A DNA stretch of 53,746 nt from contig CAYXOF010000001.1 in the NCBI GenBank assembly GCA_964466905.1, positions 1 through 53,746 on the forward strand. Direction: 5' to 3'. The position numbers and the translations under genes were made by a program. Shown in pieces: positions 35,237-53,746 of this stretch; the first letter of the stretch is position 1; each line of letters begins with the position of its first letter. The notes beneath the pieces are model-generated. The model was not told the origin of the DNA. It did not search any database and worked only from the letters and a program-made list of their open reading frames with translations. Origin of the DNA: an uncultured Candidatus Saccharibacteria bacterium. Its GTDB lineage: Bacteria; Patescibacteriota; Minisyncoccia; Phycocordibacterales; UBA918.

Positions 35237-36550
35237 CTATATTGATGGGTCGTGCACCTCCTCGATGCGAATATTTTCGGGTTGGGCTGGGAAGGACTGT
35301 CGCCAGAACGGTGTAATGGTTACTTTCGCCGCCCGGATACCCGGGTACGCGGTAATGGCGTTGTTGAGAGCAGTTTTAGGGAGGGTTGCAAGATCCTTTG
35401 CGAGCTTCAGAGCGTCAAACTGCCACACTAAGAGCGGTTTACCAACGAGCGAGAACGTGAGAGATGGCTCGTTTGCTATCACACTCGCGCTGGTTGTACT
35501 ATTTGTGTACGAAAATGTTAGTACGGTCGGATCTTTCACACGGACATCTCCCCCATCGTAGGTCGCAATTGCCTCACTGGCGAGGAAGGTTCCAAACATC
35601 AGTTCTTCAAAAAGAGGTATCTGTAATATGGCCTGTTCCTTAAGGGTGACGAGGTCATTGCCATACGCAACTGTTGGCAACATAGTGTACGTCAGCGCCA
35701 CCGCTTCCATAAACGCAATGGTGCCAGCTGGGCGTTCAGTCTGAATGCGATTAAGCAACTGATCACGCAACTCAATTTGTAGTGCTTGCCGTGCTGTACT
35801 CAGCTCGGCATCATCTATCTGATACTGAGGGCCAGCAAAGCCACCAGTGAATGCTTCAGTGTTTTCTGCGTAGATAGATTCGTAGAGGGCTGTAAACCCA
35901 TTCTCTTGAAACCCAGGTACAGTGAAGCGGGTTTTGGCTGGCAGGTTATACGACTCGCCTGGCTCCGCCGCGGTTACGCTGGCTTGGATCGTTCCCGGGA
36001 CAGTGGCGCCACTGCCATCTTTGATGGCACCGGGGACCACCACTGCTTCACTTATACGGAAAATTTTGCCATCGGGTGACCGAAAGCGGGTATTGGCGAT
36101 CAATCGTTCGGCTCCAGGGGTGTTTTTAATGATGGTAATGGTACCGGTAGTGGTTTCTGTCACCTCAACCTGACCACTCGCTTTCACTTGTCGTTCACCG
36201 GTCGCTTCCAGAGTGAGAATCGTATAGCTAAGAGCATTTTCACGTGGTGTCGGGTAGGCAGTGAATTCAGCATTAATATTTGGTTCTTTAATTTGTGGGT
36301 AGACAGTGAGGACAGTTTTACCAGTAAATGCAGAAATAGTTACGGTCACAATAATAATGAGTGCAAAGGCTGCAATGATGTAAAACGGACGACGGCTTTG
36401 TCTCGAACGGCCATCTTCAATGACTATGTGTGGAATATCATCTGGGGCTGCCACGGTGGTCGGGCGTGATGCGTGTGGGGGGCGGGTAACAGGTCGAGGC
36501 TGACGCGGTGCTGCTGGTCTAATATCTTGCAGATTCCATTTTTGTGACAT
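35237..36550 (-). CDS. Bitopic membrane protein: Pro/Arg-rich cytoplasmic N-terminus, one TM helix, about 360-aa beta-rich exterior domain (possibly baseplate-J-like)
   Basis: RPAAPRQPRPVTRPPHASRP, then FYIIAAFALIIIVTVTISAF, then repeated patterns such as TGTITIIKNTPGAERLIANTRFRSPDGKIFRISEAVVVPG and VTAAEPGESYNLPA. The family resemblance is from memory only. Confidence 0.55.
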   Translation of the reverse strand: MSQKWNLQDIRPAAPRQPRPVTRPPHASRPTTVAAPDDIPHIVIEDGRSRQSRRPFYIIAAFALIIIVTVTISAFTGKTVLTVYPQIKEPNINAEFTAYPTPRENALSYTILTLEATGERQVKASGQVEVTETTTGTITIIKNTPGAERLIANTRFRSPDGKIFRISEAVVVPGAIKDGSGATVPGTIQASVTAAEPGESYNLPAKTRFTVPGFQENGFTALYESIYAENTEAFTGGFAGPQYQIDDAELSTARQALQIELRDQLLNRIQTERPAGTIAFMEAVALTYTMLPTVAYGNDLVTLKEQAILQIPLFEELMFGTFLASEAIATYDGGDVRVKDPTVLTFSYTNSTTSASVIANEPSLTFSLVGKPLLVWQFDALKLAKDLATLPKTALNNAITAYPGIRAAKVTITPFWRQSFPAQPENIRIEEVHDPSI

Positions 36551-50849: not shown

Positions 50850-53746
50850 TTATTCCACAGCCTCGCTGCCGATAAAATTAAGGATACGCGATGGCACGTA
50901 AACGACTTTGGTGACAGTAAGTGCTGCCAGGCGCTTTGCTAGGCTTGGTTCGTTTTTTGCGAGTCCAATTGCTTCAGTTTCACTCGCTGTCGGGCTCAGG
51001 GTAATATCACCCCGGACCTTACCGTTGATTTGCACACCTATCGTGACCGATTGATCGCGCGCGAGCTCAGGGTCAAACACTGGCCAGACAGCTGTATGGA
51101 TACTGTCACGACAGCCCGCCTCGTGCCAGAGCTCAGCTGCAAGGTGTGGCGCAAATGGTGCGAGTAGCCGAAGAAAGGCCTCATAACTTGTGTGTGTGAG
51201 ACCAGCTTTTTCTACCTCGTTTAAATAGATCATCATCGCGCTAATGGCGGTGTTGAACTTGAAGGCTTCTATGTCCTCACTCACCTTCTTGATGGTTTTG
51301 TGGAGTGTGCTAGCGGCGCTCATTGGTTCTGTATCGACGATATGCGATGCCAGTCCATTCACTCGCTCCAAGAAGCGGCGGGCACCGACGAGACCATCTT
51401 GGCTCCAGGCGATAGTATTTTCGAAGGGACCCATGAACATCTCATAGACGCGGAGTGTATCAGCACCTACGAGCGACACAATATCGTCAGGATTGATTAC
51501 ATTCCCCCACCGCTTGCTCATCTTGCGGCCGTCTTCAGCGAGAATAAAGCCGAGAAACTCAAGTCGCTGAAATGGTTCGATGGTCGACACGACGCCAATA
51601 TCATAGAGAAACTTATGCCAGAAGCGGGCGTAGATTAGGTGTCGCACGGCATGATCGCCACCAACGTAAACATCGACGGGTTGCCAATCCTTCTCTTTCT
51701 GGGGATCAATGAGTGCTTCAGTATTATGTGGGTCAATATAGCGTAGGTAGTACCAGCTGCTGCCCGCCCATTGCGGCATAGTATTGGTCTCGCGCGTGGC
51801 GTTAAGGAGTGTCTGTCCGGCCGGTGCCTCGCTCGCCACCATAAAGTCACCCTCATCAGTGAGGTAGCCAGTAACGTTTACCCAGTCACTGATGGTCGAG
51901 AGCGGTGATTGGCCATCCCCAGCTGGTTCGTAGTGTTCCACCTCTGGCAGCGTAACGGGTAGTTGAGCAAAGGCCACCGGTACTGCAGTACTGTCTTCCA
52001 AGTGCACAATTGGAAACGGCTCACCCCAGTACCGCTGTCGACTAAAGACCCAGTCCTTAATTTTATAGGTTTTTGTCATTCGACCCCCCACCTTTTCAAC
52101 GATCGTTCGTTTTGCGTCTTCTGAATTCATCCCGTCAAATTCACCTGAATGAATCAGTGTACCCGTGCCTGTATGTAGTTCACCATGTAGAAAACATCTC
52201 CAGGCTCGAGCGTGCCAAGACCACGTGATCAATGCTGCGATCTGGTCTTTCTGTACCCATTCAATAGTATGCTTACCTTCATCAATCTCAGATGGAACCT
52301 GATGGAGTGAATTTAGTTTTATGTGATAGAAACTTGATGTGCCTTGTTGGTTTTTTAGTTTGCTGTGTCGGTAGCCAATCGAGCTGGTGCAAAATATTGG
52401 TGTGGCGCTCACAAACGTAAAATCAGTGAATCCCGTCTCTTCGCGCAGCTCCTTTGTAACAGCCACATGATCAGTGTCGCCATCCTTTCCCCCACCTACA
52501 AAGTGGGCGAGATTTCTATTGTCAGTATCAATTTCTCTTTGTAGTAAAAACGTCCCATCTGTCGGGTGTTCAATAATGATGTCAATACTGTCTCTTGTTG
52601 CGAGTGTTTCGACGTCAGAGCGTGGAGCGTCTGCACCATCAGCAATGAATGACTCCGTAATTACTGGTTGGATAGTGAGGCCAAATTTCTTTGCAAATGC
52701 ATAATCTCGTTCGTCATGCGCAGGGACAGCCATAATGGCGCCGGTACCGTATGAGGCAAGCACGTAATCGGCTATATAGACCGGGATCACTGCGCCACTG
52801 GCTGGGTTAGTGGCAGTGACGCCTGCAAGCTTCACACCGGTTTTTTCTTTTGTATCATCAAGACGATCCATTTCTTTCTTCTCCGCCACGTCACTAATAT
52901 ATGCTTCAACTTCAGGCCAATTTGTGATGGTGGCCTTATAGGTTCTAATCAGCGGATGTTCTGGAGCTAGTACCAGGTAGGTGGCGCCGAAGAGGGTGTC
53001 CGGTCGGGTCGTGAAGACGGTTACCGTATCACCAGTTGAGAGCGTGAAGTCGATTTCTGCTCCCTCACTCCGTCCAATCCAATTCCGCTGCGCTTCTTTA
53101 ATGTGCTCTGGCCACGCGAGGGTGTCGAGATCTTGGAGTAGACGGTCAGCGTACTCACGGATCTTCAAGGTCCATTGTCGCATCGGTCGCTTCTCCACTC
53201 TACTATCACAGCGCTCACAGGTACCATCGCTGTTGAGGTCCTCGTTTGCGAGTCCCGTCTGACAGCCAGGGCACCAGTTGATCGGTTCGTGACTTTCATA
53301 CGCTAGTCCCTTTTTGAAGAGTTGAATGAAGATCCATTGTGTCCAGGTATAAAAATCTGGATCTGTGGTGTTGATCTCGCGCGACCAATCGTAGTCAAAC
53401 CCAAGCTTCTCGAGTTGGGCTTTAAAGTTTGCGATATTTTGGTCGACGGCGACGCGCGGGTGAACTTTGTGTTTGATGGCGAAGTTTTCGGCTGGCAGCC
53501 CAAACGCATCCCAGCCCATCGGATGGAGCACTTCATGTCCACACATGCGTTTGAAGCGGCTGTAGATATCAGTTGCTATGTAGCCTTTTGGGTGCCCCAC
53601 ATGTAGTCCCTCACCTGAGGGGTACGGAAACATGTCGAGCACAAATGTTTTTGGTTTCGGTGAGCTGTCTTTTGTAATGTATATGTTGTCTGCTCGCCAG
53701 GATTGCTGCCACTTCGCTTCGATCGTGCCGTGATCAAATTTTTTGT
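50850..53746 (-). CDS. leuS: Leucine--tRNA ligase carrying an internal Nudix-like domain insertion; the extreme N-terminus lies outside the window
   Basis: Frame is open to the window edge (KKFDHGTIEAKWQQSW...). PYPSGEGLHVGHP (HIGH), CPGC...CERC, editing-domain TTRPDTLFGAT and GTGAIMAVPAHDERD, KMSKR. Extra segment with GGGKDGDTDHVAVTKELREETGF. Confidence 0.93.
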   Translation of the reverse strand, partial: KKFDHGTIEAKWQQSWRADNIYITKDSSPKPKTFVLDMFPYPSGEGLHVGHPKGYIATDIYSRFKRMCGHEVLHPMGWDAFGLPAENFAIKHKVHPRVAVDQNIANFKAQLEKLGFDYDWSREINTTDPDFYTWTQWIFIQLFKKGLAYESHEPINWCPGCQTGLANEDLNSDGTCERCDSRVEKRPMRQWTLKIREYADRLLQDLDTLAWPEHIKEAQRNWIGRSEGAEIDFTLSTGDTVTVFTTRPDTLFGATYLVLAPEHPLIRTYKATITNWPEVEAYISDVAEKKEMDRLDDTKEKTGVKLAGVTATNPASGAVIPVYIADYVLASYGTGAIMAVPAHDERDYAFAKKFGLTIQPVITESFIADGADAPRSDVETLATRDSIDIIIEHPTDGTFLLQREIDTDNRNLAHFVGGGKDGDTDHVAVTKELREETGFTDFTFVSATPIFCTSSIGYRHSKLKNQQGTSSFYHIKLNSLHQVPSEIDEGKHTIEWVQKDQIAALITWSWHARAWRCFLHGELHTGTGTLIHSGEFDGMNSEDAKRTIVEKVGGRMTKTYKIKDWVFSRQRYWGEPFPIVHLEDSTAVPVAFAQLPVTLPEVEHYEPAGDGQSPLSTISDWVNVTGYLTDEGDFMVASEAPAGQTLLNATRETNTMPQWAGSSWYYLRYIDPHNTEALIDPQKEKDWQPVDVYVGGDHAVRHLIYARFWHKFLYDIGVVSTIEPFQRLEFLGFILAEDGRKMSKRWGNVINPDDIVSLVGADTLRVYEMFMGPFENTIAWSQDGLVGARRFLERVNGLASHIVDTEPMSAASTLHKTIKKVSEDIEAFKFNTAISAMMIYLNEVEKAGLTHTSYEAFLRLLAPFAPHLAAELWHEAGCRDSIHTAVWPVFDPELARDQSVTIGVQINGKVRGDITLSPTASETEAIGLAKNEPSLAKRLAALTVTKVVYVPSRILNFIGSEAVE

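Follow-up and report, generated by a model that had tools for sequence, protein, structure and literature searches.

A leucyl-tRNA synthetase (LeuRS) gene, leuS, with a complete Nudix hydrolase domain nested in frame inside its CP1 editing domain, lies at the end of a 53,746-nucleotide stretch of DNA (the window: positions 1 to 53,746 of contig CAYXOF010000001.1, assembly GCA_964466905.1, from an uncultured Candidatus Saccharibacteria bacterium). A first-pass annotation, made from the sequence of the window, had proposed a Nudix domain within an otherwise complete LeuRS, and this proposal is backed by hidden Markov model (HMM) matches, structure prediction, fold searches, and independent assemblies. 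The insertion is not a one-off; it is widespread among the LeuRSs of Patescibacteria, where the Nudix domain is gained, lost, or replaced as a whole cassette at the level of strains. With moderate confidence, we favor a reading in which the domain is an autonomous, active nucleotide pyrophosphohydrolase that is tethered to LeuRS, is exchanged by recombination, and takes no part in LeuRS chemistry.

The insert comprises 164 residues (Table 1): a full Nudix domain flanked at either end by a short connector. When the window protein is aligned by phmmer with Thermus thermophilus (Tt) LeuRS, query residues 2-363 match Tt 3-363, residues 527-737 match Tt 380-580, and residues 742-958 match Tt 638-875; a 16-residue loop of the Tt enzyme (residues 364-379) is replaced by the insert. 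The match to the Pfam model of the LeuRS editing domain (PF13603; 200 bits) is split at about position 143 of 185, and deletion of residues 364-527 yields one contiguous match over positions 1-183. Thus, the insert sits inside CP1, at roughly three quarters of its length, and not in a linker that follows CP1. The first-pass annotation had located the domain correctly within leuS but had assigned it to a linker at the end of CP1; the alignment moves it to a CP1 surface loop and revises its boundaries to those in Table 1.

Several lines of evidence identify the insert as a Nudix domain. The Pfam NUDIX model (PF00293) is matched with 27.9 bits in the whole protein and with 32.0 bits (E = 1.5e-7) in the isolated segment, above the gathering threshold of 21.1 bits. 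The Nudix box is exactly as had been described: relative to the consensus G-x5-E-x7-R-E-U-x-E-E-x-G-U, it differs by two conservative swaps (D replaces E at position 7, and K replaces R at position 15) and keeps all three metal-binding Glu residues. A profile built from related inserts matches 186 Nudix sequences in the PDB, the best with an E value of 1e-13. Modeled in isolation with AlphaFold2 (AF2), the insert is predicted with a pLDDT of 95.3 and a pTM of 0.88, and within the full-length model its pLDDT is 84-96. A Foldseek search with the insert model gives 410 PDB matches at E <= 1e-3; the best 50 of these 410 are all Nudix proteins, and the best match is 2azw, an uncharacterized MutT/nudix protein of Enterococcus faecalis (E = 2.8e-9, TM 0.71/0.79). 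By these models, the insert is an autonomously folding Nudix domain with the α/β/α-sandwich fold. An intein or other self-splicing element was also considered and was rejected, as the only Pfam families above their cut-offs are aaRS (aminoacyl-tRNA synthetase) families and NUDIX, and the Nudix fold accounts for the whole insert. A search with the insert profile found no further copy or donor cassette among the window's open reading frames (ORFs) of at least 50 residues.

The host of this domain is a bacterial-type LeuRS whose gene runs past the window edge. Its minus-strand frame is open for 964 codons (50853-53744) across both junctions of the insert and is followed by a stop codon at 50850-52, which agrees with the single polypeptide of at least 964 residues that had been claimed. 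A public protein of 966 residues (P0003, starting MHKKFDHG) is 100% identical to the window LeuRS, so only the first two codons (Met-His) are missing at the window edge. The protein matches the NCBIfam equivalog TIGR00396 (leuS_bact) with 941 bits, against a cut-off of 548, and is therefore a member of the bacterial LeuRS family; the LeuRS landmarks that the first-pass annotation had quoted were all located in the translation. Membership of CP1 in the LeuRS editing domains is evident from the PF13603 match together with the T-rich and conserved Asp motifs. The full-length AF2 model has a pLDDT of 86.2 and a pTM of 0.74, and its best PDB matches are E. coli LeuRS-tRNA complexes (5on2_A, TMt 0.80). 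The host appears to be a functional LeuRS, given that neither its editing motifs (TTRPDT and GTG...HDERD) nor its synthetic motifs are disrupted; judged from its sequence, it appears to keep all of the elements required for aminoacylation and post-transfer editing. G528, directly behind the insert, is invariant across an alignment of 86 insert-bearing sequences.

The host also departs from the Tt enzyme at other places. The leucine-specific domain of about 50 residues that most LeuRSs have ahead of KMSKS has no counterpart in the window LeuRS: query residues 737 to 742 span Tt 580 to 638, Tt 581-637 are missing, and an AEDG stretch is found instead. The absence of this domain is a known natural variation and leaves family membership unaffected; the LeuRS of Mycoplasma mobile has a GKDG linker at the same site, and the B. 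subtilis enzyme is another case of natural variation (PMC3643597). In addition, the cysteines of the ZN-2 hairpin are lost in the window LeuRS, which has HLEDSTAV in place of HCEKCG and a 26-residue acidic loop in place of CPECGG. Close relatives such as P0019 retain both ZN-2 CxxC motifs, including CPECGG.

Table 1. Features of leuS and of its nested Nudix domain; positions are those of the window.
Feature	Residues	Position	Strand	Basis or remark
leuS, bacterial-type leucyl-tRNA synthetase		50850..53746, runs past window end	-	ORF and translation
HVGH (HIGH), class I signature		53592-53603	-	motif located in translation
ZN-1 zinc knuckle CPGC...CERC		53208..53273 (CPGC 53262-73, CERC 53208-19)	-	motif located
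CP1 editing domain, part preceding insert	220-363	52656..53087	-	PF13603 positions 1-143 of 185
T-rich motif TTRPDT		52995-53012	-	within CP1 part preceding insert
GTGAIMAVPAHDERD, conserved Asp editing motif		52704-52748	-	within CP1 part preceding insert
Nested insert (Nudix domain with connectors)	364-527	52164..52655	-	gap in Tt LeuRS alignment
Pfam NUDIX (PF00293) match	384-511	52212..52595	-	profile positions 3-127 of 134
Nudix box GGGKDGDTDHVAVTKELREETGF	417-439	52428..52496	-	G-x5-D-x7-K-E-L-x-E-E-x-G-F
E432-L-R-E435-E436, metal-binding Glu of REUxEE helix	432-436	52437..52451	-	Glu invariant in 86/86 aligned
CP1 editing domain, part behind insert (GTLIHSGEFDG...)	528-551	52092..52163	-	PF13603 contiguous to 183/185 when insert is removed
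SRQRYWGEP		52017-43	-	motif located
Cys-free variable loop at ZN-2 hairpin position, GYLTDEGDFMVASEAPAGQTLLNATR	~626-651	51792..51869	-	Tt LeuRS alignment and comparison with P0019
KMSKR (KMSKS) catalytic loop		51510..51524	-	motif located; AEDG (51528-51539) precedes

The same architecture recurs among the relatives of the window protein, in dozens of other assemblies. Of the 120 LeuRS clusters closest to it, 85 carry a Nudix insert of 138-166 residues at the same loop; the rest have 5-80 unrelated residues there. The closest relatives come from sources named Candidatus Kaiserbacteria, Candidatus Paceibacteria and similar, and more distant LeuRSs (37-45% identity) from metagenome-assembled genomes (MAGs) labeled "Patescibacteria group" and "Saccharibacteria" also carry the insert; the taxon of the relatives rests on these source names and on the presence of DUF5671 and DUF8128 among the neighboring genes. 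This distribution was obtained with the full-length LeuRS as query and with an exhaustive profile search. A word-indexed search with the insert alone gave two relatives only, and a scan of GTDB genomes with an alignment of the N1 insert subtype, which gave six distant loci, was swamped by the generic REUxEETG pattern.

Conservation was examined in an alignment of 86 sequences, consisting of the window protein and the 85 insert-bearing LeuRS clusters. The metal-binding residues E432, E435, and E436 (box positions E16, E19, and E20) are invariant in all 86, and the same is seen in alignment A1. G418 is present in 85 of the 86, and E423 and R431 in 67 each; D423 and K431 of the window are thus minority, conservative variants; in the close relatives P0001 and P0002, the box follows the consensus throughout. 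In the N2 subtype, box positions 7, 15, and 22 are occupied by Q, A, and A. Overall, at least 10 insert subtypes are found that are less than 35% identical to one another, within LeuRS bodies that are 65-98% identical. Given that the metal ligands are invariant against a background identity of about 20% between subtypes, the insert is probably catalytically active.

A comparison of inserts with the LeuRS bodies that carry them reveals that the two are decoupled. Over 3570 pairs, the identity of the bodies and that of the inserts are uncorrelated (r = -0.02). Ten of the 15 closest bodies, which are 86-98% identical, have inserts merely 12-28% identical, and some inserts are closer to each other than their hosts are (for example, 90% versus 80%). 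The clearest illustration is provided by P0019 and P0081, whose proteins are about 98% identical outside the insert and about 24% identical within it. At the DNA level, the flank on one side of the cassette is 96.0% identical (1179 bp) and that on the other side, which reaches the same downstream gene, 97.95% identical (2390 bp); the ~510-bp Nudix cassettes themselves have no blastn match to each other. Presence and absence are polymorphic as well: P0053, with a Nudix domain, has a body near-identical to those of P0070 and P0073, in which a 43-residue filler occupies the loop. The process is one of whole-cassette replacement, gain, and loss at the strain level. Judging from the mosaic pattern of identity, homologous recombination through the near-invariant LeuRS flanks would explain the exchange best; with flanks as extremely conserved as these, the nested module appears to behave as a recombination-exchanged cassette.

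Within the window's own cluster (>=90% identity), the amino-acid sequence of the insert is constant, a further point in favor of its being active. This cluster contains seven variants, all of 966 residues, from JGI, ENA, and Logan assemblies, which differ at 7 positions; all of these are in the body, and none are in the 164-residue insert. Contigs L017 and L018 carry the gene at 99.8% identity. A hypervariable target of the type used by diversity-generating retroelements was considered and rejected, given the 0 changes in the insert against 7 in the body and the fact that variation takes the form of whole-cassette replacement.

The DNA that lies directly upstream of leuS is wholly different between strains whose leuS genes are 96-100% identical. 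In the pair L017 (1-1900) and L018 (1-1516), a HAD hydrolase gene and a 298-residue ORF on one contig occupy the place of three small ORFs on the other; in the pair L002 (1-3175) and L003 (1-577), a 147-residue ORF is found in place of three small ORFs. Downstream synteny is conserved and includes genes for a sigma-like HARE-HTH protein, DUF8128, YceG, and MnmA. A variable region appears to adjoin the start of leuS.

Neither the position nor the number of Nudix domains in LeuRS is fixed. With the insert profile as query, the exhaustive HMMER search yielded 3183 representative proteins (E <= 1e-10); of the best-scoring 149, about 103 contain LeuRS segments. Three sites are used: the site inside CP1 that is seen in the window (about 94 domain instances), a second site between the N-terminal catalytic half and CP1 (20 instances), and a third in the ZN-2 loop of the C-terminal catalytic half (3 instances, in P0133, P0144, and P0179). 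A single LeuRS can have from one up to three Nudix copies. Other guest domains occur as well. P0195 (1330 residues) is a LeuRS with both a Nudix domain and a Ham1/ITPase domain, the latter between the catalytic core and the anticodon domain, and P0129 has an α/β-hydrolase (Ser_hydrolase) domain ahead of CP1, as does P0075 according to its precomputed Pfam annotation. Outside LeuRS, P0148 (1318 residues) combines an M17 leucyl aminopeptidase with two GNAT domains and a Nudix domain, and an IleRS-like gene (L022, 5094-8498) contains a nested His_Phos_1 (histidine-phosphatase) domain.

The same Nudix clade also includes complete, free-standing proteins of 160-170 residues. Of the seven, four directly adjoin class I aaRS genes: P0161 stops 1 nt short of a leuS with a nested Nudix domain of its own; P0190 lies 3 nt upstream of an insert-free leuS on three contigs, two of them from NCBI MAGs; P0160 is followed by the C-terminal half of a class I aaRS; and P0270 lies between argS and an IleRS-like gene, at a locus with a dUTPase, a thymidylate kinase, and a second Nudix gene. 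The other informative contexts concern nucleotide or DNA sanitation. P0237 begins 4 nt after fpg/mutM in three assemblies, P0204 is found elsewhere and adjoins another Nudix gene, and P0211 is on a short contig without a LeuRS match. A further candidate of the N1 subtype, P0145, was not counted, since its contig, of 616 bp and low coverage, contains a piece of a nested LeuRS. On L025 (40-1218) and L026, a Nudix gene is located 40 nt upstream of a 208-residue ORF that corresponds only to the C-terminal half (KMSKT loop and anticodon-binding domain) of a class I, MetRS-like synthetase. On these short contigs, the aaRS gene may be in two halves, separated by the Nudix ORF.

Taken together, these observations suggest the following picture. 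Nested in a hypervariable surface loop of CP1, the Nudix module would act as a tethered enzyme, equimolar with LeuRS, and would hydrolyze a nucleoside-diphosphate-X compound, most likely in a MutT/NudI-like house-cleaning of non-canonical (d)NTPs or related dinucleotides. A single clade of small Nudix proteins is associated, Patescibacteria-wide, with class I aaRSs and above all to LeuRS, in one of three forms: as a gene that abuts leuS, as one to three copies nested at three LeuRS loops, or with the Nudix absent. The analysis directly supports the identity, fold, and nesting site of the domain, the conservation of its catalytic residues, its distribution, its decoupled evolution with replacement of whole cassettes, and its links to neighboring genes; we infer that it is active, which class of substrate it acts on, that LeuRS catalysis does not involve it, and that the cassettes are exchanged through recombination. 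A place for the Nudix domain outside LeuRS catalysis is suggested because LeuRS works without it or with a different one, because its position and copy number are not fixed, and because the same enzyme also exists as a separate gene. House-cleaning is suggested by the Ham1 domain, by the mutM and dUTPase neighbors, and by weak best similarities to NudI, MutT, NudG, and RppH (NCBIfam and PDB). The suggestion in the first-pass annotation of a new kind of pre-transfer editing is disfavored: near-identical LeuRSs occur with the Nudix domain, without it, or with an unrelated one, and of the ideas considered, editing is the least compatible with such a presence/absence polymorphism.

Several points weigh against the reading of a tethered house-cleaning hydrolase. 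When the Nudix subfamilies MutT, NudI, NudG, RppH, YtkD, NudB, NudC, ADPRase, and NudE were tested, no NCBIfam equivalog cut-off was reached by the window insert (RppH 19.5 bits against a cut-off of 118; MutT 19.3 against 148), and the other nine subtypes scored at most 37 bits against cut-offs of 95-475. No specific subfamily emerged from the PDB sequence search or from Foldseek (PDB and viral libraries), and the fold matches listed include MutT, NudI, Ap4A hydrolase, ADPRase, NudB, and RppH alike. The D and K of the window box at positions 7 and 15, although conservative, must also be counted here. Base composition does not establish a recent foreign origin of the window cassette: the GC content at third codon positions (GC3) is 0.40 in the insert and 0.54-0.61 in its flanks, but this dip within leuS, at the 8.8th percentile of the genome, is no outlier and was rejected as proof of recent transfer. 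Furthermore, the repeated, independent nesting at three loops and the adjacency to aaRS genes argue for a functional tie to aaRSs, which pure hitch-hiking would not account for, and the cassettes turn over to an extreme degree, as would be more typical of diversifying or conflict-driven evolution than of ordinary housekeeping.

An alternative that takes up the first of these last two points is that the Nudix domain is coupled to LeuRS after all, providing a local clean-up either of ApnN by-products of the synthetase (Ap4A, Ap3A, products of Leu-AMP with ATP or other nucleotides) or of poisonous, damaged ATP analogues. Synthetases are established sources of Ap4A and other ApnN (reviewed in PMC7705103), and independent nesting at three loops, together with relatives that abut leuS, argS, and IleRS- or MetRS-like genes, constitutes a signal of linkage. 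The best fold matches include an Ap4A hydrolase (3i7u). In Nudix enzymes, a Tyr in the X-loop, a specificity loop, is correlated with ApnA hydrolysis (PMC5389931; Srouji et al. 2017); according to Dunn (1999), as cited there, it is situated some 16-18 residues downstream of the box. Members of the N1 subtype almost invariably have a Tyr (Y458) in this loop, at a distance of 19 residues from the box in the window protein and of 18 in the majority of N1 sequences; this is a correlate and no proof. Family-wide, however, this column is Tyr in 48 of the 86 sequences and so is not conserved across subtypes. Moreover, near-identical LeuRSs lack the Nudix domain or carry one less than 25% identical, so any coupling must be dispensable and independent of geometry. 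Relatives also adjoin mutM and dUTPase genes, and the searches found no evidence for LeuRS in particular as a strong producer of Ap4A. On balance, we regard such coupling as unlikely.

With similarly low confidence, leuS of Patescibacteria might be viewed as an intragenic accessory island, in which three permissive loops, bounded by near-invariant LeuRS sequence, carry interchangeable hydrolase cassettes (Nudix domains of many subtypes in one to three copies, Ham1, α/β-hydrolase) that are shuffled between strains by recombination under diversifying selection and whose tethering is functionally required. The selective agent could then be nucleotide-based toxins, signaling nucleotides of phage or host, or damaged salvaged nucleotides. 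If true, this would constitute a new mode of accessory genome, in which accessory enzymes are nested within a core enzyme, and a new functional link from nucleotide hydrolysis to tRNA charging.

It is quite improbable, in our judgment, that the cassettes are conflict modules, kept under diversifying or balancing selection to neutralize nucleotide-based weapons or signals, with the leuS flanks serving as recombination arms. Candidate targets would be NAD or ADP-ribose signals of phage or host, ADP-ribosyl or nucleotidyl adducts on tRNALeu or LeuRS, or nucleotide-type inhibitors of LeuRS. The strain-level replacement and presence/absence polymorphism within an essential gene, the lack of correlation between insert and host phylogenies, the variation in copy number, and the existence of at least 10 subtypes with less than 35% identity speak for this reading. 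The region just upstream of leuS differs too (L002 vs L003, L017 vs L018), and Nudix domains are recurrent in conflict systems centered on NAD and ADP-ribose (PMC7159879; PMC7824862). Yet no linked defense or toxin genes were found in the loci examined, where the genes downstream are housekeeping ones (the sigma-like gene, DUF8128, YceG, MnmA). In addition, each subtype is under purifying selection and shows no point hypervariability, the associations with Ham1, mutM, and dUTPase point to sanitation, and strong recombination between conserved flanks could produce the same pattern neutrally.

A non-catalytic role, as a structural or RNA-binding appendage such as a scaffold that contacts tRNALeu or a partner protein, is very unlikely. 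Non-enzymatic proteins with a Nudix fold do exist (PMC5389931), and the box deviates at two positions in the window and has Q, A, and A at positions 7, 15, and 22 in the N2 subtype. However, the three Glu residues are invariant in all 86 sequences at about 20% identity between subtypes, as expected for catalysis, and both the swap with unrelated subtypes and outright loss speak against a specific binding interface.

Finally, an assembly chimera or a frameshifted pseudogene that fuses a Nudix gene to leuS is hardly credible: although leuS is broken into five gene calls at the related locus L001 and a low-coverage fragment, L010, is called as a separate protein of 143 residues, the frame is open across both junctions, seven near-identical 966-residue proteins come from independent assemblies, the nearest LeuRS clusters share the architecture (85/120), and the full-length model is confident over both junctions. 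At L001 (5227-8057 of a 993-kb JGI contig), the orthologous, Nudix-bearing leuS consists of five consecutive ORFs, with serine recombinase genes about 3-5 kb upstream; this is probably a frameshift error of long-read assembly rather than a pseudogene. At L004 (2198-4737 of MAG contig JAHJJO010000063.1), the end of the contig contains an inverted, partial duplicate of leuS, such that LeuRS residues 536-846 are matched on both strands; it looks like a palindromic assembly artefact.

The insert has counterparts among known systems. Small Nudix hydrolases of the MutT/NudI type (2azw; NudI, 6dt3 and 3oga; MutT, 1mut; Ap4A hydrolase, 3i7u) have the same fold, size (about 140-160 residues), and box, and are the top matches by both profile and fold. 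Unlike these free-standing enzymes, the insert is nested with both of its termini joined to LeuRS, and its identity to the characterized enzymes is 14-20%. NadM-Nudix (NMN adenylyltransferase / ADP-ribose pyrophosphatase) joins a nucleotidyltransferase of the HIGH superfamily and a Nudix domain in one polypeptide (PMC7824862). The HIGH superfamily also comprises the cores of class I aaRSs, and NCBIfam models of NadM-Nudix are among the weak matches. However, NadM-Nudix is an end-to-end fusion with a defined ADP-ribose/NAD logic, whereas the LeuRS insert is nested, variable, of another subtype, and far below the cut-off. The NCBIfam model NF040702 (isoleucine--tRNA ligase, N-acetyltransferase domain-containing) likewise describes a small-molecule enzyme domain in or on a class Ia aaRS; its match to the window LeuRS is far below the cut-off, guest and host both differ, and no description of cassette exchange was found for it. 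LeuRS is itself assembled from modules inserted into the Rossmann fold (CP1, leucine-specific domain, ZN), and the enzyme can stay active when these are removed or transplanted (PMC3643597), which fits the tolerance of the loop for 5 to 166 extra residues. Those modules serve aminoacylation and editing and co-evolve with the enzyme; in contrast, the Nudix insert is an enzyme of an unrelated kind that evolves separately from its host.

The domain architecture of aaRSs is regarded as very stable in bacteria, and CP1 is a well-studied drug target. Full-text literature searches found no paper on a Nudix domain in LeuRS or in any other aaRS, in agreement with the first-pass annotation, nor any on this pattern of module exchange. 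A comprehensive analysis of the Nudix clan from 2017 mentions neither "tRNA" nor "synthetase" (PMC5389931). The architecture is visible in precomputed Pfam annotations; it has been unnoticed rather than invisible. It is unusual for an essential gene to exchange an internal domain between strains, and the case offers evolutionary studies a clean natural system for domain gain, swap, and loss by recombination. For the biology of the candidate phyla radiation, it provides a lineage-specific link between a nucleotide hydrolase and a class I synthetase that can be tested with recombinant protein, and it may explain how house-cleaning functions stay expressed in reduced genomes. For protein engineering, it marks a CP1 loop that accepts insertions of more than 160 residues.

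In the rest of the window, no tRNA, rRNA, riboswitch, or other RNA family is found in the 53.7 kb at the Rfam gathering level. A 437-residue ORF on the minus strand (35237-36550) matches no Pfam family at E <= 1e-5. A nested foreign domain is present in none of the other aaRSs of the window or in its M17 aminopeptidase. These comprise at least three synthetases, namely an AlaRS of 651 residues that ends right after tRNA_SAD, a GluRS, and a class II enzyme of the D/K/N type, and the M17 aminopeptidase is an ordinary one.

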